DNA from: a virus
Virus record (IMG/VR): IMGVR_UViG_3300037313_001714
Location: 32,001-96,000 of that record
Reading direction: 5' to 3' (one strand)
Length of the DNA: 64,000 nt
Shown here: positions 1,921 to 62,552 of the stretch, one piece after another
Numbering within the stretch: position 1 is the first letter of the stretch
Layout: each line of letters starts with the position of its first letter
The notes under the pieces: generated by a model
The model's input: only the letters and a program-made list of their open reading frames with translations
Told to the model about the DNA's origin: nothing
Database searches by the model: none
Program-made: the position numbers and the translations under genes

Positions 1921-2801
1921 TGTCGCGTCACTGGTGACTTACATTGTACCTTGTACGAAACCAGCGTCGGGGCGCTCGCCTGCAGGAACCCGGTCATGAG
2001 CTTGCGGCCCTGCGCGACGCCCTCGTCCGTGGCCTTGCCGGAGCGCCGCACGATGTAGGGGACGTCGCCAATGCCCTCGACGTAGGCCTGGCTGAAGGCG
2101 ATCGCCGCGGCGTAGAACGAGTCGCGCAGCCGGATCGCGCCGACCTCGTCGGGCGCGGCGCAGATCATCTGCTGGGCCAGCACCGGCAGCGCCTGCAGCG
2201 GGTTCATGCCGGCCGTCATCTGCGGCGAGTACCAGGCGCGCAGCATCATCTTGTCGATGGCCGTCAGCGGCGCCGTCTGGCGCGGAAAATACGACAGCAC
2301 GGTGTCGCCGCTCGGGTGGCCGCGCAGACCCATCACGTGCATGAACTCGTGGTAGCGGCAGCGCCCCACGTCGGCCTCGCGCATCTGCGTGAGCGTGTGC
2401 GTGACCAGGAAGTCCTTGCTGCCGTAGTCGGTGAAGGTGACGCACGGCTGGTTGTCCGCCAGCGCCTTGTTGGGCAGCACCTCGACGATGACGTTGGCGT
2501 AACGCTTTGCATCCTCCTCGCGCGGCACTTCCACCAGCGGCACGCCCGCGGCGGCCGTCACATCGGCCAGCGCCTGCAGGATCTCGTCATGGTGCCGCTT
2601 GGCGTGCAGCCCGGTGATGTGCACCCGCATCGGCTGCTCCCAGCGGATCACCTCGACCGGCTCGCCCGACTGGTGCCACAGCACTTCCCACATGGTCTGG
2701 AGCTGGGCGCGCTCGGCGGCCAGCGGGGTCTCTTGCGCGCCCAGCCCGCTCGCGAACGCCAGGCCGGCGACGAGGGCAAGGACCGAAGAGCAGGCGCGCA
2801 T
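1917..2801 (-). CDS. Exported zincin-like metallopeptidase (DUF2927-like)
   Basis: N-terminal signal peptide; HEFMHVMGLRGH = HExxHxxGxxGH. Confidence 0.7.
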   Translation of the reverse strand: MRACSSVLALVAGLAFASGLGAQETPLAAERAQLQTMWEVLWHQSGEPVEVIRWEQPMRVHITGLHAKRHHDEILQALADVTAAAGVPLVEVPREEDAKRYANVIVEVLPNKALADNQPCVTFTDYGSKDFLVTHTLTQMREADVGRCRYHEFMHVMGLRGHPSGDTVLSYFPRQTAPLTAIDKMMLRAWYSPQMTAGMNPLQALPVLAQQMICAAPDEVGAIRLRDSFYAAAIAFSQAYVEGIGDVPYIVRRSGKATDEGVAQGRKLMTGFLQASAPTLVSYKVQCKSPVTRQ

Positions 2802-2807
2802 GGTCGG

Positions 2808-2889
2808 ATTATAGTCACCGCTGACTGAAACACCAGACGGTGTCCTGTTTCAGACTGGGGTTGATTGTATGTCACTTGTGACTTACACT
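2808..2889. promoter_or_regulatory. Divergent sigma70-type promoters, each with a palindromic site; both appear leaderless
   Basis: Plus: TTGATT(2861)-17 bp-TACACT(2884), site GTCACTTGTGACTT in spacer, ATG 2897. Minus: TATAAT at 2813-2808 adjacent to site AGTCACCGCTGACT, ATG 2801. Confidence 0.75.
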
Positions 2890-2896
2890 CTGCCAT

Positions 2897-4282
2897 ATGA
2901 AACGACTCAGCCTGCTGGCGCTGGTCGCGGCGTCGGCACTGTCTGCCTGTGGCGGTGGTGGTGGCTCCGGGAACGACCTGCAACCTTCCCCCTCTCCGCA
3001 ACAGACCTCGCCCGAGGTCTACCCGGCCGCATCCACCGACGGCAGCCTGCTGTCGGCGATCGACGCGCGCTTCAAGGTCCATCCGCGCCCTGCCCCGGCC
3101 CCGGCACCCGCGCCGGCACCCGCCCCGAGCTGCAGCGCGCCCGCGTGGAGCACCACGACGCGCTACATGGGCGGCGAGCTGGTCACGGACCCCGGCAACG
3201 GCCAGGTCTACGTGGCGGTGGTGCTCGACCCGTCCATCTGGAATGTCAACAGCGAGCCGATGTGGACGCCGCAGTACTGGACGCCCGCGCCTGGCTGCGT
3301 CACACCGGCCCCGGCGCCAGCGCCAGCGCCCAGCCCCGCCCCCGCGCCGACTCCTGCGCCGACCCCGGCGCCCGCGCCTGGCGGCATTCCGTCGATCAGC
3401 GTCAGCTCCAACCCGAACGTGTGGCTGCAGACCGGCCCCGACGCCGCGGGCGCGGCCTACTGGGCCTCCAGCGACCCGTGGGGCGCCACCGGCCTCACCG
3501 CCGGCACCTACACCGGCATCACCGGCACGACCTACGAGCAGGCGCTGGGCATCGCGACCGATGCCTCCAACGGCGCGGCCGCGCGCTTCACCTGGAAGTG
3601 GCCCACCGGCCAGACCGAGGTGAAGGCCTACCCGTCGATCCTGGCCGGCGACAAGCCGGGTGAGGCCAACAGCGGCCCCGCCCCGGGTGGCCTGCCCGTG
3701 ATCCTGCCGGACGGCAGCACGTCGCAGACGGCGCCGTCTGGCGCCACGCCGGGGACGATCTTCCCGATGCAGCTGCCGCTGCCGCCGGTCTACAGCTCGT
3801 TCGCCTACTCGAGTGCGCTGCCCACCGGCCACGGCCACCTGTCCTACGACATCTGGCTGCAGAACACGCCCACTCAGTGCCACGGCTGGGACGCCTGCGG
3901 CGAGATCACGCACGAGATCATGATCCCGCTGGAGTACTGGGGCGGCTATGGCGCGTACCCGAACGGGCGCAACCCCGGCTGGTACGTCAAGGACGACATC
4001 ATCGATGGGCGCCTGTGGCACATCTACATCGCCAAGGACGGCTCGGGCAACTTCGTGCCGTTCGGCAGCGGCTGGAAGTTCATCGTCTTCGAGCCGGACG
4101 GCCCGGTCGCGCCTGGCACGCTGAACATCGGCGCCTTCATCAACTACCTGACCACGCAGTCCACGCCGAACGGCACCAAGTGGGCCAACGGCAACGAGTG
4201 GCTGGTGAGCGCCGAACTCGGCATCGAGCCGGTGGACGGTGAAGGCGACCTGACGATCTACGACTACCGCGTGTGGAAGTGA
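2897..4282 (+). CDS. Lipoprotein: Pro/Ala linkers, CBM5/12-like module and GH12-like endoglucanase domain
   Basis: Lipobox LSAC; AWSTTTRYMGGELV...QYW CBM-like; KAYPSI, YDIWL, HEIMIP (nucleophile), ELGIEP (acid/base) GH12 motifs. Confidence 0.75.
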   Translation: MKRLSLLALVAASALSACGGGGGSGNDLQPSPSPQQTSPEVYPAASTDGSLLSAIDARFKVHPRPAPAPAPAPAPAPSCSAPAWSTTTRYMGGELVTDPGNGQVYVAVVLDPSIWNVNSEPMWTPQYWTPAPGCVTPAPAPAPAPSPAPAPTPAPTPAPAPGGIPSISVSSNPNVWLQTGPDAAGAAYWASSDPWGATGLTAGTYTGITGTTYEQALGIATDASNGAAARFTWKWPTGQTEVKAYPSILAGDKPGEANSGPAPGGLPVILPDGSTSQTAPSGATPGTIFPMQLPLPPVYSSFAYSSALPTGHGHLSYDIWLQNTPTQCHGWDACGEITHEIMIPLEYWGGYGAYPNGRNPGWYVKDDIIDGRLWHIYIAKDGSGNFVPFGSGWKFIVFEPDGPVAPGTLNIGAFINYLTTQSTPNGTKWANGNEWLVSAELGIEPVDGEGDLTIYDYRVWK

Positions 4283-4304
4283 CGTTCGGTTTTCGCGAAA
4301 ACCG

Positions 4305-4329
4305 AAAAGGGGCCATCAGGCCCCTTTTT
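4305..4329. terminator. Bidirectional intrinsic terminator between convergent genes
   Basis: AAAAGGGGCC-ATCA-GGCCCCTTTTT. Confidence 0.85.
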
Positions 4330-7963: not shown

Positions 7964-8060
7964 GGGTTACTCTTCCCTGAAAGCGGGCGATACCGCCCGC
8001 GAATGAACGCATCATAGAGAGTTGCGTCAGGAAAGCAAGTCAGCGGTGACTATTGCCGCA

Positions 8061-8699
8061 TCAGTGCACGAGGTGGCTCGAGTGCAGGAAGCCGGAGATG
8101 TTGCTCAACACCTGCATGGTGCGGCCGCAGGCGTTGTCCACGGCCTGCACGCGCTCGTCCAGGTCGGTGAGCAGCCGCGGCAGGTAGAAGTGCGCGCACT
8201 CCAGGCGCGGGTCCACCGTCAGGCCCAGGTACAGGCTGTTCAGGTGCTCGATGAACGCCGGGTTGGCCACCGCCTTGCCGTCGCGGCTCTCCTGCAGCGG
8301 GATGCCTGGCTGCACCAGGATCACGGTGGAGAACCACTTGTTGGTGGCGTCGAAGCAGGCCTGCACGTAGCAGGTGAAGCGGTCCTGCAGCTCCGGCGGC
8401 ACGCTGTCGCCGATCGCCTCGGCCATCGTGTAGCCCAGCATGTCGAGCGGCGTGCGGTCGGTGATCACCGTCAGGCCCGGCGGCGCCTGCGCGTAGAGCT
8501 GCTGCACGCCCGCCAGCACGATCTCTTGCAGCTGCAGGCGCGTGGCGAAGTCATAGCGGCCGGCCGCCGCAGGGTCGTAGCCCGCCGCGCGGATGATCTT
8601 GGACACCGAGGCGTCCAGGTAGACGCCTTCGATGAACTCCGCGTACTTCTTGGCGAGCGTGGTCTTGCCAACGCCCTGCGCGCCGACCAGGCCGATCAC
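8061..8699 (-). CDS. P-loop NMP-kinase-like protein (AAA_28/NadR type)
   Basis: GLVGAQGVGKTT Walker A; ITDRTPLD motif; next to dut and thyX. Confidence 0.75.
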   Translation of the reverse strand: MIGLVGAQGVGKTTLAKKYAEFIEGVYLDASVSKIIRAAGYDPAAAGRYDFATRLQLQEIVLAGVQQLYAQAPPGLTVITDRTPLDMLGYTMAEAIGDSVPPELQDRFTCYVQACFDATNKWFSTVILVQPGIPLQESRDGKAVANPAFIEHLNSLYLGLTVDPRLECAHFYLPRLLTDLDERVQAVDNACGRTMQVLSNISGFLHSSHLVH

Positions 8700-11285: not shown

Positions 11286-11327
11286 AGCTGCCTCGCGGTG
11301 ATTATAGATCACCGCTGACTTACTCCA

Positions 11328-14168: not shown

Positions 14169-14254
14169 GAGGCGTGCTTTCCTTGTGCTTTTCGGGAGGG
14201 GGAGCGTGAGTCTAGCCAAGTCACCGATGACTTACTATAAGCGGCGGAATTAAT

Positions 14255-14923: not shown

Positions 14924-14956
14924 GGTCTGACTCTATCTCACGGGTGACTTAGCCAC

Positions 14957-19817: not shown

Positions 19818-19909
19818 GTCGCTCCTGAAGTCATCGGTGACTTTGCATCATGGGCGCACGAATCCCGCGCGCCCGGTTTGTTCATTATACGCAGTAAGTC
19901 AGGCGTGAG

Positions 19910-20290
19910 TCACCTGACGGGGAACGCCAGATCAATCTTCCTGGGATCGTTCGCGGGGTCGACGGCGAAGTGCGTGCAACGCACGCCCCGCTCCAGGCCC
20001 AGCGGCGTGCGCGTGACGAAGCTCTTCTCGGGATGGAAGAAGTCCTCCAGCGGCGACAGCCACACGCACTTCTTGCCGCCCCGCCTGGCCACCACGCCCA
20101 CGTGCAGGAAGCCCTGCTCGCGGCAGCGCGCCAGCGTGCCGGTGTCGATGCTCCAGCCGTTGAATTTGCGATTGAGGTGGCGCATCTGCCGGTGCGCCAG
20201 GTAGATCCGGTGGCCGCCCTCGGTCTCGTAGTAGATGCCCAGCAACTTGCCATTGAGCGTGTGCCGTGTGCGCGCTACACGATGGGCCAT
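19910..20290 (-). CDS. Hypothetical protein
   Basis: 126-aa basic ORF. Confidence 0.65.
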   Translation of the reverse strand: MAHRVARTRHTLNGKLLGIYYETEGGHRIYLAHRQMRHLNRKFNGWSIDTGTLARCREQGFLHVGVVARRGGKKCVWLSPLEDFFHPEKSFVTRTPLGLERGVRCTHFAVDPANDPRKIDLAFPVR

Positions 20291-24022: not shown

Positions 24023-24157
24023 GTGGTGTGTGACAGCAGTAAAGAGGTTGAAGAGATGGCAGGTTTGCAGGTGCTTCTCGACGCGGTCGCCCGCGTCAAT
24101 CGCACCCGACATTATACCTCACCGGTGACTTACTGACGAGCCCGAGTCCGCGGGCCT

Positions 24158-25288: not shown

Positions 25289-25392
25289 GTTGCGTGTGCT
25301 CCGTGTTGCGTGTGCAGGTTGCAGGTTTGAGGGTCTGACTGTAGCCCGAATGGGCAGGAAAAGATGCGTCACGGGTGACTGAGTGAAACTGC

Positions 25393-28300
25393 CTAAGAAA
25401 CGATCTCGTGAACGGTCTTGAACACCTCCTTCAAGGCGTCGTACTTGCTCGGGTCGAAGTTGATCTGTTGCGGGTTCAGGCCGCACACGATGGTGGCGGC
25501 CAGCGCCGCGTCGTAGATGGTCTTGCCCACCATCTCCGCGCCCTTGGCGCCCGGGATGAAGCGGCGGATCGCTGCTGAGCCCAGCGCCACGATCACCGGC
25601 GGCTTGATGACTTCCAGCTCGCGGGTGAGGAACTGGCTGCAGCCGTTGATCTGGTCGTTGGAGAGGAACTTGTCGTTCTTCTTGGCCTTCACGAGCGTGG
25701 TGTAGTAGCCGTCACCGGGCTGCAGGCCGGCATCGCGGATGGCTTCCTTCACCCAGCCGGCGGCCTCGCCCTCCAGCAGCTTGTCGGCCTTTTCCTCTTC
25801 CCAGCTCGGGCAGTCGGCCACCACCATGAACTTCACGTTGGACTTCATGCGCGCCTGCGGATGCGGCCGGCCGGCCAGGTCGCAGTCGCCGCACTTGCGG
25901 TACTCCTGCACGATGTGGATCACCTTCGCGCGCACGAACTTGTCGGTGACGTCCGTGGTGCGGTCGGCCTTGACGTTGTCGATGATCAGGCCTGGCATCA
26001 GCTCGGTCTGGTCGCGCCGGCGGTCCGGGTGGCGCGCCGGCTTCTCGGTCGGGTCGATGCTGGCCAGTGCGCCGACGAGTTTGAGGCGCTCGCGGTGCGT
26101 GATCGTGATCTTGCTGCCCTTGACGCTGGTCACTGCCTCGAAGTGCGCGGCGCTGGTGAAGCGGCCGCCGGCGGCGGCGCGGTGGGCCATGAGCTTGTGC
26201 GCCGTGTTGTCGCTCAGGCCCTTGACGGCGCTGAACGGTGCCAGGATGTGCGTGTCGTCGGGAATGGTGAAGCGCTCGGTGGACAGGTTGATGTCCGGCG
26301 GCAGGATCTCGATGCCCGCCTCGCGCGCGTCCTTGACCAGGCCCGCGAGCTTGTCCTCCTTGACGATCGACAGGCAGGCAGCGAAGTATTCGGCCGGGTA
26401 GCGCACGCGCAGCCACATGGTCCAGTAGCTGATGATGGAATACTCGACCGCGTGCGAGCGGTTGAAGCCGTAGCCGGCGAACGCCTCGATCTTGTCGAAC
26501 AGCGCGCCCGCGATCGCGGCATCCATGCCCGAGTGCTTCTCGCAGCCCTCCACCCAGGCCTTGCGCTGCTCGGCCATCTTGACCTTGTCCTTCTTGCCCA
26601 TCGCCTTGCGCAGGTGGTCGGCGCCGGCGCGGGAAAAGCCGGCCAGGTCGATCGCCAGCTGCATCACCTGCTCCTGGTAGACGATGACCGAGTAGGTGGA
26701 CTCGAGCGCCGCCTCCATGTTCGGGTGCTCGTAGCTGGGCGTGAGCATGCCCTGTTTGATCGCCACGAAGTCGTCCATCAGGCCCGAGTCCATCGGGCCG
26801 GGCCGGTACAGGGCGGTGGCCGCGGTGATGTCCTCGAAGGTGAGCGGTCCACCCTTGCGCAGCTCGCGCAGCAGCTTGCGCATGCCAGGCGACTCGAACT
26901 GGAAGACGCCCGTGGTGTCGCCGCGCCCGAAGGCGTCCATCACGTCCGGGTCCTCGAGCGGCAGATCGGTGTAGGTGACGTCGACGCCGTGCCGGCCCTT
27001 GATGTACTGCCGTGCGATCTCCAGCACGTCGAGCGTGGACAGGCCCAGCACGTCCATCTTGACCAGGCCCCAGTCCTCCACCGTGCGCTTGTCCCAGGAC
27101 ACCACCGGCAGGCCTTCATCCGTCTCGCTGCGCGTCTCCACGACCGCGCGCTCGTGCAGCGGCACGCCGCCGATCACCACGCCCCCGGCGTGCTGGCCGA
27201 ACGAGCGCATCACGCCTTCGAGCTTCAGCGCGTGGCCCCAGATGTGCGGATGGTTCAGGCGGAACTTGTCGATCTCGGGGATCGCTTTGGCGGCTTCCTC
27301 GAGGGTGGCCGACACGCCCTGCTCCTTTGGCACCAGCTTGGTCGGACTCAGCTCCAGGTTGGACAGCTCGTGCACCCGGCCCGCGTCCCTCAGCGCCGAT
27401 GCGGAGGCGAGCGTCGAAAAGTTGCTGACACCGGCCACCCGGTCGGCACCGTGGCGGCCGACCAGGTACTGGAAGACCTCGTGCCGCCGGCTCGTCTGGA
27501 AGTCCAGGTCCGCGTCCGGGAGGTCGAGGCGTTCAGGGTTAATGAACCGCTCGAACAGCAGGTTGAAACGGATAGGGTCCACCTCGGTGATCCCAAGGAG
27601 GTAGGCAACGAGACTGCCACCAACCGATCCCCGACCGGGACCAACAATGATGCCATTGGCTTTGCTCCAGTTCACGAGGTCCGCGACCAGCAGGAAGTAG
27701 CCGGCGAAGCCCATCTTTTTCAGGACCGCCAGCTCGTAGTTCAAGCGCTCGCGGTACTTGGGCAGGTCGGCGATCGACGGCTGGTGGCCCATGACGCGGC
27801 GGCCGAAGCGCCTACCCCAGCCCGCGATGCACAGCCTGCCCAGCTCCATGAACTCGTTGGTCGCCATGGTGGGCAGCGACACCGGCAGCTTCGCGAACTC
27901 CCACCTGCAGGCGTCGGCCAGGTGCTGGGTGTTGACCAACCCCCTGGCGAACAGGGTGGCGATCTCATGCTTGCTCAGACCCGTGTTTCCCCACTTCTCC
28001 GCACGGTCCACCGCGCCGCTCAGACGTAGTCGCAGCGTCGCAGCCGGCTTGAAGCCGAAGTCGCGCACGAACTGGCGCGGGCGGTGCCGCGTGTCCATCT
28101 TGTACTGCCCCGACGAGCAGATCGTCTGCAAGACCTCCAGCGTGGGTGCGTCTGCGTCGTCGCGGTACAGAAACGGATAGGTGACAAGGGTGCGCGCAGC
28201 GTGCGTGTGCGCTGCCTTCAGCGCGCGCGCGTTGAGCGTGTCGAACAGCGGCGTGTCGATCGGCGCCAGTTCGACATAGACGCGCTCGCGGCTGAACTTC

Positions 28301-30468: not shown

Positions 30469-30470
30469 GG

Positions 30471-37809: not shown

Positions 37810-38034
37810 ATGAGCCTCGTCGACGACCCCATCATCCGCCCGCGCCAGATCCGCGCGGCCACCGGCCTGTCCAAGCCGACCATCTACCGCATGATGGAAA
37901 AGGGCGAGTTCCCGCGGCCGATGAAGCTGTCGGCCGGCGCGGTGGGCTGGCGCCAGTCGACCATCGAGAAGTGGCGCGAAGAGCGCGGCCTGGCCGGCGG
38001 CGGCGAGCTGCCCGAGGACCCCAAGCAGCACTAG
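37810..38034 (+). CDS. alpA: AlpA-family excisionase / RDF
   Basis: IR...TGLSKPTIYRMM.KGEFPRP.KL...AVGW.QS.I..W. Confidence 0.85.
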   Translation: MSLVDDPIIRPRQIRAATGLSKPTIYRMMEKGEFPRPMKLSAGAVGWRQSTIEKWREERGLAGGGELPEDPKQH

Positions 38035-41992: not shown

Positions 41993-42080
41993 GGGGGTGT
42001 CTGGTGCGTGCGCGATGCCCGCGCGTGATGGTTGAATTTTACTGAGACCGTCAGGAAAAACAAGTCATCGGTGACTCTTC

Positions 42081-43178
42081 CTATGAGGCAGACGCAGCGA
42101 GCTTGGCGCAGCGCATGCGCAGCTCGATGGCGCTGGTCGGGTTGATCACCCGGGCCTTCCAGTAGGCGTCGCGCACCACCTGCGGGGCGACCTCGTTGGG
42201 GTCCTTGTCCGCGGGCAGCTCCGCCAGGCGCGCCTTCAGGCCGATGCCGTGACACAGCAGGCCCGCGCTGATCGCCGCTTCCAGCGCCGCGGGCTCGCCG
42301 TCCCACATGAAGGTGATGATCTGCAGCCCGAGCGCCTGCAGCTGCTGCAGCTTGGCGAGCTGGCTGTCGGCATCGCCGCTCGACAGGTGCTTGCCGAAGG
42401 TGCCGATCGGCACCACGTGGCGCGTCTGCAGGCTGCCGTCCAGCGCGAACTTGATGGCCGCCACGTCGAACACGCCCTCGCCCGCGCAGACCTCGCGCGC
42501 GCCGACCGCGTTGTGGCCGTTGTAGAGGATCGAGCCGGTGCTGGCGAACCCCGGCGGGAACAGGTACTTCTTGTCGGCGCTGCCGGTGATGTCGCGCCCC
42601 TGGAATGAGGCGAGCTGGCCGTCCAGGTTGAACACCGGGATGATGACGCGCCGGCTGTAGTCCTGGAAGCGCTTGCGCCCGCCCTCCTCCCACCAGAACT
42701 TGCCGTCATGGCAGTAGCGCAGCCCGAAGTAGCGCGCCAGCTCGCCGCCGATGTTGCGGTTGTCCAGGTACTTCAGGTTTCGGCCATTCACTGGCAGCGC
42801 GACCGACTTGGGCAGTTTCAGCGGACCATGCTCGACCGTCGGGGCGGCAGCCAGTTTCGGCGGCTGCCAGCCCTGCTCGCGCGCGGAGGCCTTGACGTTC
42901 TCCACCGTGGCACGGTTGTCGCCGCCCATGTAGGCCTTCATGAAGCTCCACTTGTTGAAGCCCTGGCCATCGCAGTCGCCTGAGAAGCAGTTGCCAAAGC
43001 CTGTGTCCAGCCCGAAGTAGACCTTCCACTTGGTGCTGCCGCAGCGGGGGCACTCGCGGATGTTGGCCTGCCGGCCGTGGTGGCCGCGTGTGACCTTGTA
43101 GCGGATGCCCTCGCGATCGAGCCACTGCTCGAAGTCCAGGGTGTCCAGCGCCTCCTGCAGCTCGGCGTTGCCGCTCAT
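42081..43178 (-). CDS. dnaG: DNA primase (Zn-binding + TOPRIM)
   Basis: CPRCG...C...C Zn finger; RVIIP, QGR, KYL; AGEGVFDVA and MWDGE TOPRIM. Confidence 0.85.
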   Translation of the reverse strand: MSGNAELQEALDTLDFEQWLDREGIRYKVTRGHHGRQANIRECPRCGSTKWKVYFGLDTGFGNCFSGDCDGQGFNKWSFMKAYMGGDNRATVENVKASAREQGWQPPKLAAAPTVEHGPLKLPKSVALPVNGRNLKYLDNRNIGGELARYFGLRYCHDGKFWWEEGGRKRFQDYSRRVIIPVFNLDGQLASFQGRDITGSADKKYLFPPGFASTGSILYNGHNAVGAREVCAGEGVFDVAAIKFALDGSLQTRHVVPIGTFGKHLSSGDADSQLAKLQQLQALGLQIITFMWDGEPAALEAAISAGLLCHGIGLKARLAELPADKDPNEVAPQVVRDAYWKARVINPTSAIELRMRCAKLAASAS

Positions 43179-45225: not shown

Positions 45226-45951
45226 TTATAGGTCACGGGTGAGTGAGTTCTGCAGGCTGAAATCGATTGCCTCGTCGAGGTCGTCGGACGCGAAGGCGGC
45301 CAGCGCGGCCTCAAGCCGCAGGTGGCCCACCGTGTGCAGCGCGGCGCTGAGCGCAAAGCGCCGCACCGGGCGACGCCGGATGGCCTCGATCAGGTGCACC
45401 TCGTAGGCGCGCTGGTCGGGCGCGGCGCACCAGTTCTCCACCCGGAATCGGCTGGACGCGGCCCACTGGATCTTCTCGCGGCCCTCCAGCGTCCAGGCGT
45501 TGCACACCGCCACGATCAGGTCGTTGTCCGCGGTCAAGTGGGCCGGCCGCGGCGGGTGCGGAACGCCCTTGCCCCAGCCCTGCTCGATCAGGTAGCTCAT
45601 CGCCTCGCGCAGAAAGAACTCGTAGCGCATGCCGAGCCGGTCGATCAGCTGGCGCAGCTTCCAGAAGCTCTTGCGCTCGTGGTGCTCGAAGAAGTCGCCG
45701 CCCTTGATCGCCTTGGTGAAGCGCAGCTTGTGGTCCAGCGCGCGGCCGATGAAGTCGCCGTACGCCAGGTTGTAGTGGTGCACCAGCAGGTGGGTGGCCA
45801 CCGCCGGGTGCAGCTGGCGGTAGTCGAACCACTTCGACTGCATCAGGGCCGGCTCCTCCGCGAGCAGCGTGCGGTCGATCCGCGCCACCGTGAGGATCTC
45901 GGCGCTCTCCAGATCCAGGCCCGATCCGTAGAAGTCCGGAAGGTCCTTCAT
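45226..45951 (-). CDS. Conserved hypothetical protein upstream of helicase/primase
   Basis: 241-aa ORF with SKWFDY motif; AT-rich upstream region. Confidence 0.7.
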   Translation of the reverse strand: MKDLPDFYGSGLDLESAEILTVARIDRTLLAEEPALMQSKWFDYRQLHPAVATHLLVHHYNLAYGDFIGRALDHKLRFTKAIKGGDFFEHHERKSFWKLRQLIDRLGMRYEFFLREAMSYLIEQGWGKGVPHPPRPAHLTADNDLIVAVCNAWTLEGREKIQWAASSRFRVENWCAAPDQRAYEVHLIEAIRRRPVRRFALSAALHTVGHLRLEAALAAFASDDLDEAIDFSLQNSLTRDL

Positions 45952-46919: not shown

Positions 46920-46978
46920 GGCTCCGTTGAAAACTACATGCTAACTCACCGGTGACTGATCGCCTATAAGCGACGGCG

Positions 46979-48643: not shown

Positions 48644-48919
48644 TCAGGGGTGCTTGGCTTGTTGCTTCAGGACGCTGTCGACCCAATCGACCAGCGCGTT
48701 GTGGCGCGTCATCAGCTCGTTGTAGCGAGCCGCGGCGTCGATGTCGGCGTCGACCAGCTGGGCGACGTCAACGGGCGGCTTCAGCGGCGGCAGGCGCTGG
48801 GCCTTTTGCATCGCCGCTTGCGGCGGCACCAGCTGCGTCGCCGGCACGCGCAGCGTTGAGCAGCCGCACAGTGTCATCGTCGAGCCGAGCAGCAGGATCG
48901 ACAGTAGCGTTTTGCGCAT
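48644..48919 (-). CDS. Outer-membrane spanin (Rz1-like lipoprotein)
   Basis: Lipobox LCGC; Pro-rich; overlaps i-spanin in another frame. Confidence 0.8.
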   Translation of the reverse strand: MRKTLLSILLLGSTMTLCGCSTLRVPATQLVPPQAAMQKAQRLPPLKPPVDVAQLVDADIDAAARYNELMTRHNALVDWVDSVLKQQAKHP

Positions 48920-49250
48920 CGGTGGGAACCTCCGGTTGTTCGTCGGGATGGGCCGCGGCATAGGCGCGCGCCTCCTCGCGGGCGGCCGCTTCCGCGGCCA
49001 GGTGTTCTGCCGCGGCGTTGCGCACGCTGGCGGCCTTCTGGTTGCCGCGCGTGACAGCCGCATCGATGCGGTCGCTGCCCTTGCGGGCGTTGATGATGTT
49101 CTTGCCGGTGGTCTTGGCCGAGTCCATCGCCAGGTGCGCGTTGGCGCGCATGTGCAGCCACTGCTGGATGCCCCAGGCGCCGCCGACCCCGAGCAGCAGC
49201 CCGAAGAACAGCATCACCATCCAGAATTTGATGTGCTCCAGAATCGTCAT
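48768..49250 (-). CDS. Inner-membrane spanin (Rz-like)
   Basis: N-terminal TM then Ala-rich helical region; follows endolysin. Confidence 0.8.
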   Translation of the reverse strand: MTILEHIKFWMVMLFFGLLLGVGGAWGIQQWLHMRANAHLAMDSAKTTGKNIINARKGSDRIDAAVTRGNQKAASVRNAAAEHLAAEAAAREEARAYAAAHPDEQPEVPTDAQNATVDPAARLDDDTVRLLNAARAGDAAGAAASGDAKGPAPAAAEAAR

Positions 49251-49804
49251 GCGCTGGCCTTCACTTGCGGTTGCGGGGCGGCCAGCGGCTCCAGGCACCA
49301 GGCGCGCTCGAACAGGCGCCGGTTGTAGAGACCGCGCACGAAGCGCGCGCCGTGGTTGGTGTAGCTCCAGACCGGCGTGCCGTCGGGGCCTTGGGCGATG
49401 GCGTCGCAGCCGGCGGCAGCGTCACCGGCCTTGATCAGCGCCATGGCGCGCGAGCCGCAGGCGTTGGCCACGCCCACGTTGATGGCGAACAGGGTCAGCG
49501 CGTCGAACTGGTGCTGGTTGAGCACCGGGTGATCGGCGGTGTGGCCCGAGCACTGGATGATCGCGAGGCCGTACTTGGCGGCGTCGGCCGCGCGGATGTG
49601 ACTGCACTCGTCCTCGCTGACCTGCGAGCCGACCTTCATCTTCCAGTCGGTGTGGCCCGAGCAGACGGTGGGCAGGCCGCCGGCGAGCTTGTCGGCGTAG
49701 ACGGTGGTCTCGTCGCCCTCCCACTGGGACATGGCGCCGAGGATGGAGGCGCTGGCCACCACCAGCCCGGCGACCACCTTGGTGCCGCGGCTGATGTCAG
49801 GCAT
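49247..49804 (-). CDS. GH24 lysozyme, SAR-type endolysin
   Basis: Weakly hydrophobic N-terminus; WEG...YAD...PTVC.GHT catalytic E/D/T; GL.NRR..ER..C. Confidence 0.9.
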   Translation of the reverse strand: MPDISRGTKVVAGLVVASASILGAMSQWEGDETTVYADKLAGGLPTVCSGHTDWKMKVGSQVSEDECSHIRAADAAKYGLAIIQCSGHTADHPVLNQHQFDALTLFAINVGVANACGSRAMALIKAGDAAAGCDAIAQGPDGTPVWSYTNHGARFVRGLYNRRLFERAWCLEPLAAPQPQVKASA

Positions 49805-50045: not shown

Positions 50046-50156
50046 GCTGGAACCTGCAGAGGTGGTCCTTCAGCGGTCGCTCGCCTCGGGGGTATCTTGG
50101 TTGCGGCAGTCTAGCTGAAACCCGACCGGAAATCAAGTCACTGCTGACTTATCTGG

Positions 50157-53100
50157 TCAGAAGTTGCTGCCGGTGAACAGTGCGTCGGCAATGCCTCGGA
50201 TCACCACCAGATCCAGGTGGAGGAGGTCGAACGCCTCGCTGGCCGTCAGGGCGCCGGCCACCAGCACGCTGCCGGTGATCTGGGTGCTGTCCGGGTCTTC
50301 CGTCGCGACGAGGTCGACCAGCCCGCCGTGCTCGAGCACGCCCGCGAAGCCGTCGGCCAGCTGCTCGATCGCGGCGACCACGCCGGCCACCAGCACGTGC
50401 AGGTCGCCCACCAGGGTGTCGGCATCCTCGGTGGCGGCCGCGCTGCCCTGCACCAGCACGCTGGCGCTGATGTTGGCGCGGTCCAGGCCCGGGTCTTCGG
50501 CGCCGGCCAGGTCGCCCGAGACGAGCACCGAGACGCTCGCGCTCGCGCTGTCGGGGGCTTCGGTGAGCGCCATGCCACCGTCGACGATCACCTGCGCCGT
50601 CACCGGGCCGAAGGTGTCGGCGCCGCTCTCGCCGGCGGCCAGGTCGGCCGTGACATAGACGGTGGCGGCCGCGGCCGCGGTGTCGCTCGCCTCGGTCGCC
50701 GCCAGCGCCCCGCTCACCAGCACCGACGCTGCGATGGCGGCCGCATCGGGCGCTTCGGTCGCGCCCACGCTGCCCGTGACCAGCACACCCAGCGTGCCGC
50801 TTGCGCTGTCCGCGCCCTCGGTGGCGGCCAGGCTGGCGCCGATCCAGCCGGTGGCGCTGGCGGCGAAGGTGTCGTTGGCTTCGCTGGCGGCCAGGCTGGC
50901 CTGGACCAGCACGCTGCCGGCGATCTGGGCCGTGTCGGGCGCTTCGGTGACGTCCAGCAGGCCCTGCACCAGCACGCTGGCAGCGAAGGCCGCGACGTCT
51001 GGCGCCTCGGTGGCGGCGAAGCTCGCGTTGTCCAGCAGGACCACGCTGGCCGCGAAGGTGTCGGCGCCCTCGCTCGCCGCGAGTGTGCCTTGCACCAGCA
51101 CGCTGACGCTGGCTGCCGCGCTGTCGGCGTTCTCGGTGGCTGCCAGCGTGCTGTTGATGGTCTGCAGGCCGGTGCAGTCGATCGCGGCGGTGTCGGCCCC
51201 GCTCTCGCTGGCGGCCAGGCTGGCATTCCACCAGGGCCCGGCCGCGCTCATCGCCGCGCTGTCGAAGCCGCCTTCCACCGCGCCCAGGCTGCCTTGCACC
51301 AGCACGCTGGCCGCCAGGCTGGCCGTGTCGGCGCCGCTTTCGCTGCTCGTCAGGTCGCCGGACACCAGCACGCCGGCGCTGAAGCTCGCGCTGTCGCTGG
51401 CCTCGGTGGCGGCCAGGCTGACGTTGGTGAAGTTGCTGACCTGGATGCTGGCGCTGTCCGCGCCCTCGGTGGCGGCCAGCGCGCCTTGCACCAGGACGGC
51501 CGCGCTCAGGCTGGCCGTATCGGCGTCTTCGGTGGCCGCCAAGCTGGCGTTCCAGTACGGCCCTTCCGCGGTGGCGGCCGCGGTGTCGGGGCCGCTCTCG
51601 GTGGCAGCGAGGGAACCCTGCACCAGCACGCTGACACTGGCCGCGGCGCTGTCGTTGCCTTCGGTCGCAGCCAGGCTGGCGTTCCAGTACGGGCCACTGG
51701 CCGTGATGGCCGCGCTGTCGGCCGCTTCCGTGACCGCCAGGCTGCCCTGCACCAGGACGGCGCCGGTCATCGCGGCGGTGTCGGCCGCTTCGGTGACGGC
51801 CAGGCTGGCATTCCACCACGGGCCCGTCAGGGTGCCACTGGCGGTGTCGCTGCCCGACTCGGTGGCCGCCAGCGAGGCGTTCCACCAGGGACCGGCAACC
51901 GTCACGGCGGCCGTGTCGGCACCTTCGGTCGGGGCGAAGCTCGTGACCTGGACCAGCACGCTGGCCGACAGGGATGCCGTGTCGCTGCCCGACTCGGTGG
52001 CCGCCAGCGTGGTGTTGTCGGCCGTGGACAGGATGTTGAAGTTGTCCCACAGCGCGGTGGTGGCGCTGGCGCCGGTGGTCGCGCCGGCGTCGCCGGTGAC
52101 CAGGCCCTGGTAGAGGTTGCTGACCGGGAAATTCAGGCTGCTGGTGGCCAGCGTCGCGAAGGTGCTCCACGAGCCGGCCGACCCGCTGCCGTTGTCCGCC
52201 GCGGTGGAGAGCGTCAGCGTGCCGCCGGACTCGCTGATCTGCAGCCACTGGTGGTTGGTCGCATCGTACGTGGCGTCCGTGCCGATCGTCGTGTACGTGC
52301 CGTTGTTGGCGTACTCGGCGTGCAGCACGCCGTTGCTGGTGCCGTCCGAGTTCCAGCCGAAGCTGATGACGTTGCCGTCGTCGAACACCTGACTGGACGG
52401 CAGCAGCTGGATGTGCGCGGTGGCGCCGCTGCTGATGCTGCCTTGCGGCTTCTGGGCCAGTCGGACGGTGACGCTGCTGCCGGTGAGGTCGAACGGCGTC
52501 GTCGTCATGACGCGGGCATAGCCCGCTGCCGAGGCGTTGTACGTCTGCTGCAGGACTGTCAGGCTGCCCGAGGTGGTGCCCGGGGTGTTGCTGCAGCTGG
52601 CGTCGTTGGCCTCGGCCCAGTGGGTGGCCAGCGTGGCGCTGTCGAAGGTGTCGGTGAGGGTCGCGGCCTTGTTGGACGCCGTCGTCGTGGTGAACGTCGG
52701 CGTCGTGATCGTGCAGTTGGTGCCGACCTTGAACAACCAGTCGGCGCTGTTGCTGCCGCCGGCCGTCACCGTCTCCATCGCCACCGAGACGAACAGGTAT
52801 TCGCCTTCGAGGGTGAGGGAGCCTGGCGACCACGTGACCGAGGCGTTCTGGACCGTCGAGGTGTTGCCGGTGATGTTGCCGGTCTGCAGCGTGGCGCTGG
52901 TCAGCTCGCGCAGGCTGATCCCGCCGCCTTCATCGATCGACGCGAAGACGCGCACCCGGATCGCATCCACCTGGCTCGAAGCCAGCGTGGAGATCATCCC
53001 GAAGTTGAACGTCCAGTTGGTGGCGGCAAAGGTGCCGCTGTAGACCTTCTGGGTGCGAAAGGCGTTGCCGTTGGTGTCGTCGATCGTCGCCGCCGGCAAC

Positions 53101-53615: not shown

Positions 53616-53993
53616 TTAGGCGTGGGTGATGGTGGCGCTCGAGAGCTTGATGCTCTGGCCCGAAGTGATCGAGGTGGAGTCGACCACGATGTCGGTGCCG
53701 CTCGTGCCCACCGTCAGCCCGGTGACGATGTCGGTGCCGCCGGTGGCGGTGCGGATGCGGCCGGCCGCCGCGGTGCCGGTGGCGGCAGCCGTCACCGTCT
53801 GCGGGAATGCCGGCGAGCCGGCGAAGGTGAGCACGCCGCCCGAGGCGGTGCCGGCGGTGGACGCCAGCGTGAAGGTGGCGAGCACGGTGGCCATCGCGCT
53901 CGTGCCGATCTCGATGACGCCGGTGGCGCCGATGGCCGTCACCACGGCGCTCAGGCGCGAGTTCTTGACGGCAGTGGTGTAAGTGACAGCCAT
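53616..53993 (-). CDS. Small virion structural protein
   Basis: MAVTYTTAVKNSRL...; Gly/Thr/Ala-rich; in tail module. Confidence 0.7.
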   Translation of the reverse strand: MAVTYTTAVKNSRLSAVVTAIGATGVIEIGTSAMATVLATFTLASTAGTASGGVLTFAGSPAFPQTVTAAATGTAAAGRIRTATGGTDIVTGLTVGTSGTDIVVDSTSITSGQSIKLSSATITHA

Positions 53994-54072
53994 TTCTGGT
54001 TCCTAGGTTGTGCGCGAAGTCACCAGTGACTTAGTGCGCGGGTTGCAAAACGGGTGGTCTTTCGGATGCGGG

Positions 54073-54940: not shown

Positions 54941-55003
54941 GGCGGATCAGGCTGAACTGTAGCGGCAAACGCCCCGGAAATCAAGTCACCGATGACTTAT
55001 GCA

Positions 55004-58000
55004 TCAGGGCAGCCACCAGCAGCCCGCGGCCACCACCAGGCACAGCAGCTGGATTTCGCTGTCGTAATAGCCGGTCGTGAGGTGGCGCAGGTTCCAGTCG
55101 AACAGCGAGTTGAGCATCGACTGATAACTGGAGTCGGTCATCATCGCCAGCATCGCCGGCGCGACGAACGAGGGGCTGGAGCTGCCGTCGGTGTTGCCGG
55201 TGCCCTGGCGGTTGCCGCTCATGTCGTAGCCGTCGCGGATGCCGATCAGCCAGTCGTTGGTGCCGGTGACGGTGCCGTTGGCCTGCGACTGGAAGAAGTT
55301 CGCCATTCGCATGGTGTAGGTCTTCAGCGTCGCGTCCGCGGAGAACACGTAGTCGGTGCCGAAGCGCCACGGGTCGCGGCAGGCGTTCCAGTAGTAGTAC
55401 ATCTCCGTGGGCGTGCCGTCGCCGATGCCGCCCGGCGACAGCCCGGGGCTGTTGCCGTCGCAGTTGATGGCGAAGTCCGGCAGCAGGCCGGTGGACGGGC
55501 TGTAGGTGGTCTGCAGCTCGTTGATCAGGCTCTCGCACTTCGTGACGCAGGTGTCCCAGAAGGTGTCGCCGGTGGCCTTCTTGAACGATCGGAAGTGGCC
55601 CAGCATCCAGTCCGAGGTGCGGCTGTTGACGGCGCTCTGGATGCGCGGGAAGCCCAGCGCGTTGAAGTTGGCCGACTTCATCGCGTTGATCTTGCCGATC
55701 GCCTCAGCGCGGTAGTTCCACTGGCCGCTGGTGCTGCCCCACTGGGCGTCGGCCATCAGCAGCGCCAGCGCCATGTCCAGGTCGCCATCCACCGCGTTCC
55801 AGCCGCCGCCGGCGCTGCTGCCGTTGGCGTACAGCCGCCAGTCCATCAGGTACTGGCTCACGCCCGGGATGTAGGGGTCGTAGGCGTACGCGGGGCGCGC
55901 CTTGACGGTGGCGTACAGGCCGTCGAAATACTGGCGCGCGGTGCCGTCGTGGCCGGCGAACAGCACGCACATCAGCATGGCGTAGCCCATGCCCTCAGAG
56001 ACCGTGCAGTAGGTCGGGTCGGAGAACTGGTCGAGGTAGCCGCCGGCGACCACCTGCGAGGCCGAGACGATGCGCGCGAGCTTCCAGGCGTCGTACTGGG
56101 CGGTGAGCTTGGTGTCCATCGCCGAGTTGGTGTAGTTGGTCGGCTTGATGCCGGCCGCGTACGTCTGGATGCGGTTGCCGTAGGGCATGCTCACCGTGCC
56201 CGGTGCCGGCGCCGGCGCAGGTCCCGGGGCGGGCGCGGGGCCGGGTGCCGGGGCGGGGGCCGCGGCGCCCATGGTGGCGTCGGCGTAGCCGGCCTGCTGG
56301 GCGACATAGTTGGCGGCGTTGACGCGGTCGGTCGGCGTGCCTGCATTGTTCTTGCGCAGGATCATCGCGTACATGTAGCCGTACCAGTCGTTCGACTCGG
56401 CCACGCCCTGGTCGCCGTCGATCATGAAGCCGCTCGAGCCGGCTGTGGCGGTGCCGCAGGCGAGCGTCTCGATGGTGCCGCCGTTGATCCGCACGCCCAG
56501 CGAGCCGCCGTCGTGGTAGCACACCACCGTGTTGTCCTGGCCGAAGCGGATCTGCGCGGCGGTGGTCAGCGTCACCCGCGTGTTGCCGATGCCGACGGAG
56601 AACTCGACGTTGTTGTTCGGCGTGATGCGGATGCGGTAGCCGGCGTTGGCGGTATTGGCGTCGCTGTAGAGCGTGCGGGTGATGCCATTGCCCGAGTAGT
56701 CCTGCGAGCACCAGGCGAACATGAAGCCCGAGGTCGAGCCACCGCCGCCGATCGTGCAGGGGAAGTTGGCGTAGATGTTCAGGTAGTCGACCCCGGCGTT
56801 GGTGGTGTTCCACACCGGGTTGCTCTGGAGATTGTTCTGGGTGATGTCGTTGCCGCGGCCCGACTTGTCCTTCCAGGTGCGCACGCCGCTGCCGGGGCCG
56901 GCCGCTTGCGCGCCCGTGCCGGTGTTGCCGATCAGCGTGGTGTGGTCCTTGGCGGTGTACCAGCCGCCCTGCGCGCTGTTGGCGAAGAAGGCGGCGATGG
57001 TGGCGTCCGAGACCGGCGTGCCGGTGCCCGGGGCCGGGGCGGGGGTCGGCGCCGGCGTGGGAGACGGTGCCGGGGCGGCCCCGGACAGCGTCGCGCCCGA
57101 CAGCGACGCCATGTACTTCTCCAGCACGTTCAGCTCGGAGGTGCTGGGCGTGCCGGTGCCGACGATCGCGCCGTAGAATTGGCCGAGCGGCGCCGCAGTC
57201 TCGAAGAAGTTCACGTAGCCGCCCAGCAGGTGCATCGCGTTGTAGGGCGAGGCGGCGAAGGTGCTGGCGCCGCTGGCGACCTGGGCGCCGTTCTGGCGCA
57301 GCACCTGCGCGCCCTGCGCGTGCGTGAGCGCGAACACCTGCGGCGTGTTGACCGGCGGCGGCGTGCCCTTGAGCGTCACCGACAGGCCGTTCACGTCGTT
57401 GATCACCGCCTGCGGCGTGCCCGAAGCGAAGCCCAGCTCGGTGCGCTGCTGGCCCTCGTCATTGCCGGCGGCAAAGATGATGCCGCCCGAGGACGAGGCC
57501 GTCAGCGCGTAGCCCGCCACCACGAAGTGCGCATTGGTCAGGTCGAAGGCCATCTTGTCCTTCGGCAGCGGGATCACGCCGGTCTGCGGCACCGTCTTGC
57601 GGCACCAGAAGCCGCGCTGCGGGTAGACCGAGGTGTCCAGCACGTACTTGCCGGCGCTGTCCTGCTGCAAGGTGGGCCGCTGGAACAGCTCGGAGCCTTC
57701 GTTGACGTCCGTGTTGTACCAGTTCAGCATCTCCATCGGGTTGGTGTTGCTGGACATCGCGCCGGTGTCGCAGATCGCGCGCACCGGCCCCTTGAGCGTT
57801 GCCACCTGCGGGGTGGGCAGGTAGTCGGCCACCGCGTCCTGGGCGCGCCACAGCGCGCAGCTGTACTTGCCCACGACGGTCATCGCCGCGTCGGTCAGAT
57901 TGGTCGCGGCGAGCGTCACCGGGTCGGTGTAGGTGTAGATCGTGCGGATCGGGGGCACCTGGCCGCCGTCGGCGCGGGTGTACTGCACCGTGCACTTGGC

Positions 58001-61075: not shown

Positions 61076-61078
61076 GGG

Positions 61079-61885
61079 TTAGCCGTAGTTCACCCACTCG
61101 GCCGAATCGGCGTCGACCGTGTACGTGTAGCGGATGCCGGTGGTGGTATCGAGCCATTCCTGGCCATGCACCGGGTTGGCGGGCGCGGTGGGGCCCACGG
61201 TGAGCGCGACCCCGCCGCTGCCGCCCCCGGGCGGGATGCCATCGAGCTTGGCCTTGTCGGAGGCCGACATGAAGCCGTGCGTGGCCGGCGTGGCCAGCGC
61301 GTGCTGGGTGTCGCCCTGCCCGATGTGCCCGGCCACCAGCGCGTTGATCTTGCCCAGCGCGTCCAGCACCGTGTCGCTGGGCGTCACCAGCTGGCTGGCC
61401 GTCAGGAAGTTGTTGGGCGAGGCGGCCTGCGTCACGCCGGTCAGGGGCGTCGCGCGCACCCGGGTGGCGGTGAAGTACAGGTTGGACAGGCCCTCCATCA
61501 GGCCGTCGGTGCTGGTGATGCCGGCGCCGCCGCCTCCGGACAGGCCGCCGTTGAGCAGCGACTCGATCTGGTACATGGCGGCGGTGAAGATCGCCGCGGT
61601 GCCGACGTCGCCGTTGTTGATCAGCGGAATCTTGTTCGTGTTGGTCTCGTCGCGCACCACCACCGCCGGCGTGAGCGCAGCGCTCACGTCCTGGTAGGCG
61701 CCACTCAGCATGAAGGTGGTGTCGGTGCCGTTGAAGACGGCGTTGGTGGCGACGAAGTACGGCACCTTGTAGGGCGTCGCCAGGAAGATCTGCGACGCCT
61801 TGATGTCGGCCGAGACGTCCTGGCCCGGCACCGTCACGAGCTGCGAGCCGTTGCTGACGTTGCAGGAGAGTTTGAGCTGTGCCAT
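61079..61885 (-). CDS. Tail fibre proximal/adaptor protein
   Basis: STDGLMEGLSNLYFT, HALAT...GFMSASDKAKLDGI, GPTAP.NP..GQEWLD motifs. Confidence 0.75.
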   Translation of the reverse strand: MAQLKLSCNVSNGSQLVTVPGQDVSADIKASQIFLATPYKVPYFVATNAVFNGTDTTFMLSGAYQDVSAALTPAVVVRDETNTNKIPLINNGDVGTAAIFTAAMYQIESLLNGGLSGGGGAGITSTDGLMEGLSNLYFTATRVRATPLTGVTQAASPNNFLTASQLVTPSDTVLDALGKINALVAGHIGQGDTQHALATPATHGFMSASDKAKLDGIPPGGGSGGVALTVGPTAPANPVHGQEWLDTTTGIRYTYTVDADSAEWVNYG

Positions 61886-61956
61886 GCCTACCGGGTCCGG
61901 AATGTCCAGTGTATCACAGTCACCAGTGACTTATGTATAAGGATCGGGAATGCGGA

Positions 61957-62526
61957 TCAGGGATGGCCACCCTGCGCTTGCGGCGGCGGGCTCGGGCTGG
62001 GCGTCGGTGGCTGGGTCGGCGACGGCGGCGCGGGCGTCGGTGCCGGTGGCTGCGCGGGCGTGGGTGCCGGGGTGGTCGCCGGCGGCGGCCCCATCTTGAA
62101 GGCCAGCTTGGGCGTGGGCCGGACCGGCACCGGCGGCTGGCTCGCCGGCAGCGGGTGGGCGTTCTTCACCGCCTTGATCGCGTCGTAGAAGCCCGTCACC
62201 TGCGGCAGCTGGCCGGCGTCCATCGCCTTGAACAGCGCGTCCAGCTGGTCACCCACGCTCGGGTAGGCGTTGCGCCGTGCCACCTGGATGGCCACGTAGT
62301 CGTCATAGGCCTGGGTCTGCGCGTCGCGCAGGTCCTCCCAGGCGCCGCTGGTCACGTTGAACTGGTGGTGGATCGATGGCCGCGGGTTGCCCAGCGTCGG
62401 GTCCTCGCCGAGCACCAGCGTCAGGCCGTCGGTCAGGTTCTGGCGCGCGTGGGCGAGCTGCCCGACCGGCATCACGCCGGTCGACACGAGGTGCGTGCCG
62501 TCATGGACGTAATATTTGAGATTCAT
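61957..62526 (-). CDS. Tail fibre assembly/chaperone-like protein with Pro-rich tail
   Basis: RRNAYPSVGDQLDALFK motif; PAPT repeats. Confidence 0.7.
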   Translation of the reverse strand: MNLKYYVHDGTHLVSTGVMPVGQLAHARQNLTDGLTLVLGEDPTLGNPRPSIHHQFNVTSGAWEDLRDAQTQAYDDYVAIQVARRNAYPSVGDQLDALFKAMDAGQLPQVTGFYDAIKAVKNAHPLPASQPPVPVRPTPKLAFKMGPPPATTPAPTPAQPPAPTPAPPSPTQPPTPSPSPPPQAQGGHP

Positions 62527-62552
62527 ATGTCACTGGTGACTTTTGGATTCGG

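Follow-up and report, generated by a model that had tools for sequence, protein, structure and literature searches.

A dispersed promoter-linked palindrome in a clade of large temperate phages and an XRE-family protein as its candidate reader

The window analyzed here is a stretch of 64,000 nucleotides, bases 32001-96000 of one 118,453-bp virus record (IMG/VR record IMGVR_UViG_3300037313_001714, 66.7% GC). The termini of the record overlap, and the assembly is therefore circular. We examined a palindrome, AAGTCA-N4-TGACTT, that recurs at promoters in the window and in the rest of the genome, together with a gene in the window for an XRE-family helix-turn-helix (HTH) protein that probably binds it. 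Judged by its gene content, the genome belongs to a 118-kb temperate siphovirus of the superfamily that includes RHEph10, the Acinetobacter 'AB' phages and SSU5-related phage-plasmids. By DNA polymerase III (PolIII), the closest isolated relatives (about 44% identity) are the Rhizobium RHEph10 group, Stenotrophomonas ANB28, Pseudomonas nickie and the SSU5-like phage-plasmids. The RHEph10, ANB28, nickie and SSU5-like groups have been linked to each other and to the Acinetobacter AB phage-plasmids (PMC7969092). No near-identical phage was found by megablast of 20 kb. The gene set comprises CobT, a class II ribonucleotide reductase (RNR), SbcCD, a gp32-like single-stranded DNA-binding protein (SSB), FEN, ligase, primase, a DnaB-like helicase and PhoH, with two ParB_N proteins, a UvsW-like helicase, the major capsid protein (MCP), a scaffold, an endolysin and a spanin. 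Nearly all genes of the 118-kb genome lie on the minus strand. The integrase, the excisionase and XRE are followed by a small divergent open reading frame (ORF) and then CobT. The genes of the window that bear on the palindrome are these (RBS, ribosome-binding site):

29710-30531, minus strand: sigma-70 region-2-like protein, 273 aa (Pfam Sigma70_r2, phrog_351)
34674-34865, minus strand: small ORF divergent from XRE, about 63 aa from its ATG, with a GGAG RBS, in a Cro-like position; no family hit
35178-35627, plus strand: XRE-family HTH protein, 149 aa, the proposed palindrome binder and master repressor (Pfam, AlphaFold2 (AF2) model, synteny)
36503-37738, plus strand: tyrosine integrase (Pfam Arm-DNA-bind_3 and Phage_integrase)
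37810-38034, plus strand: excisionase-like protein (phrog_2790, phrog_66)

Copies of the palindrome were counted by their mismatches to AAGTCA-N4-TGACTT, with the expectation taken from dinucleotide shuffles. The window has seven exact copies against 0.00 expected. With two mismatches or fewer the count is 22 against 0.74 expected, and none of the shuffles reached either count. Three more copies (25366, 35041 and 45230) have three mismatches and keep the promoter geometry, which agrees with the 'about 25 copies' reported in an earlier note on this DNA; its site coordinates were all accurate to within 1-3 bp. The palindrome is 16-18 bp long, the extended form being tAAGTCA-N4-TGACTTa. The whole genome has 43 unique sites at two mismatches or fewer, spread over its full length. 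About 39 of the 43 fall outside gene calls based on third-codon-position GC, which take up about 83% of the sequence; these calls are crude, and counts of intergenic sites are therefore approximate. In the window, 19-20 of the 22 sites are between genes or at gene ends. The copy at 31632 is within the CobS-like gene, and those at 1925 and 37722 overlap the final codons of genes.

Taken in the orientation of the gene they precede, the sites fall into four classes. In class A, the final TT of the motif plus a G forms the TTG of a -35 element, and a TAnnnT hexamer follows 16-17 bp further on. Extending from -49 to -34, the motif shares 2 bp with the -35, and it is centered on -41.5 because the -10 begins 21 nt after it. 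A center near -41.5 that overlaps the -35 is the site position of class II (CRP/FNR-type) activation. In class B, the -10 hexamer begins at the last base of the motif, which thus overlaps the first T of the -10. Class C motifs lie 0-7 nt downstream of the -10 and cover +1, and class D motifs stand immediately before the RBS or the ATG. The sites of the window are as follows:

1925-1940: class C operator with at most two mismatches, 2 nt after TACAAT
2812-2827: class B operator, TATAAT; the ATG of gene 1917-2801 lies 6 nt past the -10, and its mRNA is probably leaderless
2869-2884: operator that is class B whichever strand is read (minus, TACAAT; plus, TACACT); the ATG of 2897-4282 lies 7 nt past the plus-strand -10
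8037-8052: class A operator, TTGCTT...TATGAT, with TCCTGAC after it
11306-11321: class B operator, TATAAT
14218-14233: exact operator with its -10, TAGACT, 3 bp further on; precedes the class II RNR gene
14935-14950: class B operator, TAGAGT
19828-19843: exact class D operator in the 5' leader of the SbcD-like gene, immediately ahead of its RBS
19896-19911: operator with TATAAT 7 nt downstream, sharing an intergenic region with the site at 19828
24116-24131: class B operator, TATAAT; upstream of the gp32-like SSB gene, class B in five of six genomes
25366-25381: class A-like operator with three mismatches, TACAGT
31632-31647: intragenic copy with two mismatches inside the CobS-like gene, of doubtful function
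32483-32498: exact class A operator upstream of the CobS-like AAA gene
34530-34545: exact operator, class C or D, in the CobT leader or promoter
35041-35056: weak operator with three mismatches and a perfect right half, 6 bp upstream of the XRE -35
35100-35115: operator with two mismatches, class C (plus strand), covering +1 of the XRE promoter
37722-37737: operator, class A on the plus strand, TATAAT 21 nt downstream; upstream of xis
42062-42077: class A operator, TTGTTT...TAAAAT, with TCCTGAC after it; the G003 orthologue is also class A
45230-45245: class B operator with three mismatches, TATAAT; upstream of the DnaB-like helicase operon
46943-46958: class B operator, TAGCAT; upstream of PhoH
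50135-50150: exact class A operator, TTGATT-17-TAGACT; upstream of the cassette of endolysin, spanin and possibly a holin
54017-54032: exact class D operator, within the leader of 53616-53993, a virion protein gene
54983-54998: exact class A operator, TTGATT-17-TACAGT
61917-61932: operator with -10 TACACT 3 bp downstream; upstream of a tail-fiber-like gene
62527-62542: class D operator directly abutting the ATG of 61957-62526

The earlier note had described the class A arrangement at 50135, 54983, 8037, 42062, 32483 and 25366, and at each of these we find the TTG with TAnnnT 16-17 bp later. The lysis cassette it placed after 50135 is also present, with the endolysin at 49247-49804 and an Rz-like spanin at 48644-49063. 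Its class B assignments hold at 2812, 2869, 11306, 24116, 45230 and 46943, and 14935 has the same arrangement. At 14218 and 61917 the -10 is 3 bp further on. Outside the window, class A sites are found at genome positions 113599 and 118362, both with TTGACA, and a class C site at 109100. Class A promoters include the near-consensus pairs TTGACA-17-TACAGT and TTGACA-17-TAGAGT, and the units behind class A sites include the lysis, capsid and TerS-like genes. The divergent region 2801-2897 (96 bp) contains two operators (2812 and 2869). The ATGs of 1917-2801 and 2897-4282 lie 6-7 nt past their -10s, and the GTG at 14923 is placed likewise, suggesting leaderless mRNAs.

A second short element, TTCC(T/G)G or TCCTGAC, stands about 3-5 bp after the motif at class A promoters of this genome and of its closest complete relative, G003, only (in the window at 8053-8065, 42078-42090, 32499-32510, 50151-50160 and 54999-55008; in G003, L134-L139). 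The earlier note had reported TTTCC(T/G)G after most class A sites, and TTCC(T/G)G indeed follows the motif by 3-4 bp at five of six. TCCTGAC occurs three times in the studied genome and six times in G003, against about 0.1 expected, and is absent from the other four genomes compared.

A pattern scan of IMG/VR returned the palindrome in many contigs of 100-118 kb. Five complete phage genomes of 103-118 kb with a GC content of 44-66% (G001-G005) were compared with the studied genome (G000). They align with it at the nucleotide level over only 0.2-25 kb, at about 70% identity. Each has 23-40 sites at one mismatch or fewer and 41-51 at two or fewer, while a reversed-pattern control gave 0-1. In a de novo count of all 5-Nx-5 palindromes, AGTCA-N4-TGACT was the top palindrome in all six genomes, often extended to TAAGT-N8-ACTTA. 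The register with the promoter is conserved as well, with TAnnnT peaking at motif offsets -1 (class B), +21 (class A) and -22 (class C) in six of six genomes over a background of three or fewer. The enrichment that the earlier note proposed to look for in the full genome and its relatives is thus present, and the promoter-linked, non-random regulon it described is genuine, both of its geometries recurring at identical offsets in five distant relatives.

Sites also recur upstream of orthologous genes. The divergent region between ParB and UvsW has them in six of six genomes, CobS in six of six, SSB in five of six and CobT in four, and they are found again upstream of the MCP, the TerS-like gene, PhoH and the portal. 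Among 255 deviating half-site pairs from the six genomes, 246 were changed on one side and three were compensatory. Deviations being one-sided, the element is likely read as DNA by a protein and not as a hairpin, with base identity conserved. The least variable half-site positions are 4-6 (TCA).

Other relatives lack the motif or have a variant of it. Phages nickie and ANB28 have no sites and no enriched palindrome, and JGB6 has one near-match, the level of the reversed-pattern control. Raw 9-mer counts for nickie and ANB28 promoters are dominated by coding bias. RHEph10 has its own palindrome of about 40 sites, AGTCA-ATAT-TGACT or AATCA-N4-TGATT, which shares the core of the motif and often abuts TACAAT. 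The RHE-like and low-GC (AB-like) clades use TAAGTAA-N4-TTACTTA, the same frame with half-site position 5 changed from C to A. G008 is close to the studied genome, with 63-72% identity in PolIII, CobS and MCP. It has the half-site TAGTAA in an operator variant, TCTAGTAA-N4-TTACTAGA, present in nine copies (L226-L230), and looks like a different immunity type, a putative heteroimmune variant. In G009 (L220, L225) there are 29 sites, nearly all AGTCAGAACTGACT, whose four middle bases do not vary and are asymmetric (GAAC/GTTC). We found no description of the palindrome element in the searchable literature on the motif or on RHEph10, Nickievirus and SSU5 operators.

To find the protein that reads the palindrome, every ORF of the studied genome was compared by tblastn with G001-G005, nickie, ANB28 and RHEph10. 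XRE is the only ORF found in G001-G005 and RHEph10 yet absent from nickie and ANB28. Its orthologues adjoin CobT in all the motif-bearing genomes G000-G005 and in RHEph10. A profile hidden Markov model built from 28 orthologues found the family in G000-G005, G009, RHEph10 and Cyrano but not in nickie, ANB28 or JGB6. Phages without the motif keep both ParB_N proteins, MucR-CobS, a winged-helix protein of 115 aa and the phrog_867 DNA-binding protein, which argues against any of these as the binder and against a parS role for the sites. The sigma-like protein (29710-30531) had no phage matches by tblastn and hence could not be profiled; we do not take it for the palindrome binder, but it is possibly relevant to the promoters without a -35. 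G008 looks like a relative poor in the motif and without XRE. However, the contig of this provirus breaks off precisely between CobT and the integrase, so that the absence of XRE is an artefact, and G008 uses the variant operator.

The sequence of XRE also varies together with that of the half-site. Across about 35 loci, a KPN turn before the recognition helix goes with AGTCA, N(P/Q/A)N with AGTAA, and RAN, QSN or KAN with AATCA or xxTCA. The pairing of KPN with AGTCA includes G002, G004, L216 and L218, which are as distant from the studied genome as the RHE-like clade is. Lys, Arg or Gln facing C:G and Asn facing A:T would be chemically plausible. A single-protein search gave two non-syntenic XRE homologues, both in metagenome-assembled genomes (MAGs). 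One, of the KPN type and from an Aromatoleum MAG, is preceded by three AAGTCA half-sites, all in the 120 bp before its start.

In its AF2 model (mean pLDDT confidence 88), XRE has a five-helix HTH domain that superposes on 434 Cro with an rmsd of 1.8 Å over 63 residues, followed by a helical C-domain. The best whole-chain structural matches are the repressors Stl, DdrO and RghR. Among PDB sequence matches an 'immunity repressor' is best, and 434 repressor, Cro and the C-proteins C.AhdI and C.BclI come after it. No Peptidase_S24 domain was matched by Pfam, and the C-terminal half is all-helical in the AF2 model. Since that domain is lacking, induction would probably go through an antirepressor instead of self-cleavage.

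The XRE gene has its own promoter, CTGACA (35063-35068) and TATAAT (35087-35092) with an 18-bp spacer. The site at 35100 begins 7 nt after the TATAAT and therefore covers +1, as the earlier note had said of the XRE start, and the site at 35041 lies before the -35, so that the promoter is flanked by sites. The XRE orthologues likewise have degenerate sites upstream. The small divergent ORF corresponds in position to CYRAN_46 in Cyrano. Taken together, the phylogenetic profile, synteny, co-variation and the sites at its own promoter bear out the earlier choice of XRE as best candidate, and from the sequences we consider it well supported that the protein encoded at 35178-35627 is the palindrome binder.

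The overall model, in which we have moderate confidence, is that XRE is a global repressor acting through dispersed palindrome operators. An XRE dimer would place one reading head on each half-site, the half-site centers being 10 bp apart (6-4-6). Nearly every unit, whether for replication, nucleotide metabolism, lysis, head or tail, would begin with a sigma-70-type -10, and the bound protein would cover the -35 at class A sites, the spacer together with the leading base of the -10 at class B, the transcription start at class C, and the leader or RBS at class D. In the prophage, XRE on about 43 sites would keep the lytic genes off, while the weaker sites flanking its own promoter would give negative autoregulation. 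We infer repression as the effect from the geometry, the interchange of classes among orthologues and the homologue in Cyrano. Classes B, C and D are occlusive positions for a 434-type dimer (-10/-15, +1 and leader). As for the interchange, the MCP promoter is class A in G000, G003 and G005, but in G002 and G004 its operator follows the -10 immediately and lies on +1. The CobS promoter, class A in most genomes, is class B in G002. In nickie and ANB28, XRE and all sites are lost and the core genes kept, which fits dispensable operators better than essential activator sites.

Several observations weigh against this model. Over 93 class B sites from the six genomes, only the motif and the -10 are common, nothing is shared upstream of the motif, and the best match to a -35 is barely above random. 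Class B promoters without a -35 are unusual if they are only repressed and would fit an activator that replaces the -35. The strict register of operator and -10 also exceeds the needs of steric occlusion. Either these -10-only promoters are read by a -35-independent factor, a candidate being the phage sigma-like protein, or the bound protein helps the polymerase. For XRE as the binder, the match to Pfam HTH_3 (E=3e-4, 21.2 bits) is below the gathering cut-off of 23, and the co-variation with the half-site is partly confounded by phylogeny. The second non-syntenic homologue, 50% identical and from a gammaproteobacterial MAG, has no clear site nearby. The incomplete relatives G006 and G007 retain sites, some of them degenerate, without XRE at the syntenic place, where G007 has an integrase remnant.

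The earlier note had proposed a dual switch. On this reading one XRE dimer would repress from the spacer, the -10 or +1 and activate from -41.5 by contact with sigma region 4, in the way of lambda cI at PRM or of class II CRP/FNR activators. We think this rather unlikely. In its favor, class A sites keep an exact geometry in G000, G001, G003 and G005, the TTCCKG or TCCTGAC element following class A motifs in G000 and G003 suggests a special promoter type, and the PDB sequence matches of XRE include C.AhdI and C.BclI, dual regulators that belong to the controller proteins of XRE type. However, orthologous genes that are class A in some genomes are class B or C in others, as for MCP and CobS, and because such promoters interchange classes the dual switch is unsupported. 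Class A -35 and -10 pairs are already good, TTGACA-17-TACAGT for example, and at those near consensus no activator should therefore be needed. Class A also drives the lysis, capsid and TerS-like genes. A lysogen must keep lysis and capsid genes off, which argues against activation, as turning on such genes by the lysogeny regulator would be lethal. Activation at class A is conceivable because the geometry is that of cI at OR2 acting on PRM, and nothing requires it.

It is also possible, and we judge it quite unlikely, that the palindrome is the defining upstream element of these promoters. XRE, alone or with the sigma-like protein, would then replace the -35 at class B, touch sigma at class A and block only at +1 or in the leader. 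If true, one small HTH protein would be an obligatory position-dependent transcription factor for a whole genome of 100-120 kb, and variants of the half-site and the turn residue would define transcriptional 'incompatibility groups'.

That the protein is an obligatory activator that substitutes for the -35 and recruits RNA polymerase to class B promoters, in the manner of T4 MotA at middle promoters or as a partner of the phage sigma-like protein, seems to us very unlikely. The motif would in that case be a positive element of the promoter instead of an operator. This reading would account for the missing -35 signal at the 93 class B sites and for their exact register with the -10, and a gene for a sigma-70 region-2-like protein is nearby. 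Sigma regions 2.4 and 3.0 contact the groove near -14.5. At class B, one head of a 434-type dimer would sit at -14.5 and would fill the groove that these regions use. In classes C and D the identical site is on +1 or in the leader, where it would repress. Moreover, nickie and ANB28 have lost XRE and the motif and keep the gene set with ordinary-looking -10s, and the Cyrano homologue is expressed in the lysogen.

A different binder, with XRE merely co-inherited, is likewise improbable. It could be the Cro-like small ORF, some further factor of the phage or a host regulator that is conserved. Cro of lambda-type switches uses the same operators as the repressor, the small ORF is at the Cro position both here and in Cyrano, and the sites kept by G006 and G007 without a syntenic XRE would be explained. 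Yet no relative conserves the small ORF by tblastn, and the ParB_N, winged-helix, MucR-CobS and phrog_867 proteins are all kept in motif-less phages. A host factor, named as an alternative in the earlier note, was judged unlikely, as the hosts span 44-67% GC and the half-site variants differ between close relatives and track the XRE sequence. The last alternative, a parS-like centromere for the ParB_N proteins or hairpins in RNA or DNA (terminators or processing sites), is close to refuted: two ParB_N genes are among the core genes and the motif is a perfect inverted repeat, but the sites are dispersed and locked to promoter hexamers instead of clustered, nickie and ANB28, which lack the motif, and RHEph10-type genomes still have both ParB_N proteins at about 40% identity, three of 255 deviations are compensatory, no T-tract follows the sites, and most sites, being upstream of the start site, are not transcribed.

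The mechanism proposed for XRE is closest to those of P1 C1 and the cluster A mycobacteriophage repressor, while the fold and the layout of the switch are closest to 434 and lambda. The likeness to the dispersed P1 C1 operators drawn in the earlier note is apt, given 43 sites, about 39 of them intergenic, over 118 kb. As in P1, one repressor would serve many scattered operators on a plasmid-prophage of about 100 kb with separate lytic promoters, and there is no single lambda-type immunity region or cascade. The resemblance is one of mechanism, not homology. P1 operators are asymmetric 17-mers and C1 is not of the XRE/434 type, whereas here the operators are symmetric (6-4-6) and the protein is XRE-type, with about three times as many sites held in a fixed register with the -10 and -35. 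The gp71 repressor of cluster A mycobacteriophages (L5, Bxb1) similarly has 20-35 stoperators genome-wide in short intergenic gaps, and its specificity variants reportedly define immunity groups. Unlike the sites described here, which are symmetric and on promoters, stoperators are asymmetric 13-mers, depend on orientation and block elongation inside operons.

With lambda cI and 434 repressor, XRE shares a 434-like HTH, a proposed palindromic operator whose half-sites are one helical turn apart, divergence from a small ORF, operators on its own promoter and, at class A, the arrangement of cI at OR2 on PRM. It differs in having no S24 domain, a helical C-domain like that of Stl and DdrO, and operators beyond one switch region. 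KorB and KorA of RK2/RP4 also use palindromic operators across a large replicon, set by the -35 or on the -10, but KorB is of the ParB family, and in the phages compared here the presence of ParB_N proteins does not follow that of the motif. CYRAN_45 of the SSU5-like phage-plasmid Cyrano is a distant member of the same protein family as XRE (E=6e-23 against the family profile), with the same synteny of integrase and XRE, small ORF and CobT. It has been described as a putative repressor that is expressed 10-fold above the prophage background in lysogens (PMC9928086). Cyrano differs in having no AAGTCA-N4-TGACTT. Its genome (L170, OV696614.1) has TAAGT-N4-ACTTA eight times against 0.08 expected and AACAA-N1-TTGTT 12 times against 0.36, and these palindromes are candidate operators for SSU5-type phage-plasmids.

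Large temperate siphoviruses and phage-plasmids of the AB, RHEph10 and SSU5-related superfamily are common in Proteobacteria, some of their hosts being of clinical relevance, and their lysis-lysogeny control is essentially uncharacterized. For one clade, the repressor model is testable, as it specifies the gene of the proposed repressor, an operator of 18 bp and, in each genome, some 43 mapped promoters as targets. The predicted determinants of specificity are the XRE turn residue two before the recognition helix and half-site position 5, which would set the immunity groups. An operator map is at the same time a promoter map for genomes that are hard to annotate, and the register of operator, -10 and -35, kept across 44-67% GC, is a natural data set on operator-promoter packing.

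Three minor features were seen in addition. The leader of the major capsid gene contains a block of about 21 nt, CGGTGACTAGAGCGACTTAGG, at L148:17530-17580, which corresponds to about 113,530-113,580 of the studied genome and is outside the window. The block is conserved in G000, G003 and G005 though the surrounding DNA cannot be aligned, and it may be a leader RNA element or a further binding site. The CobS-like AAA+ protein (31189-32433) starts with a segment resembling the Ros/MucR zinc finger (Pfam E=3.5e-6). The PolIII alpha subunit (25393-28836) ends in a domain of the uracil-DNA-glycosylase superfamily, comparable to the annotation of RHEph10 gp048.

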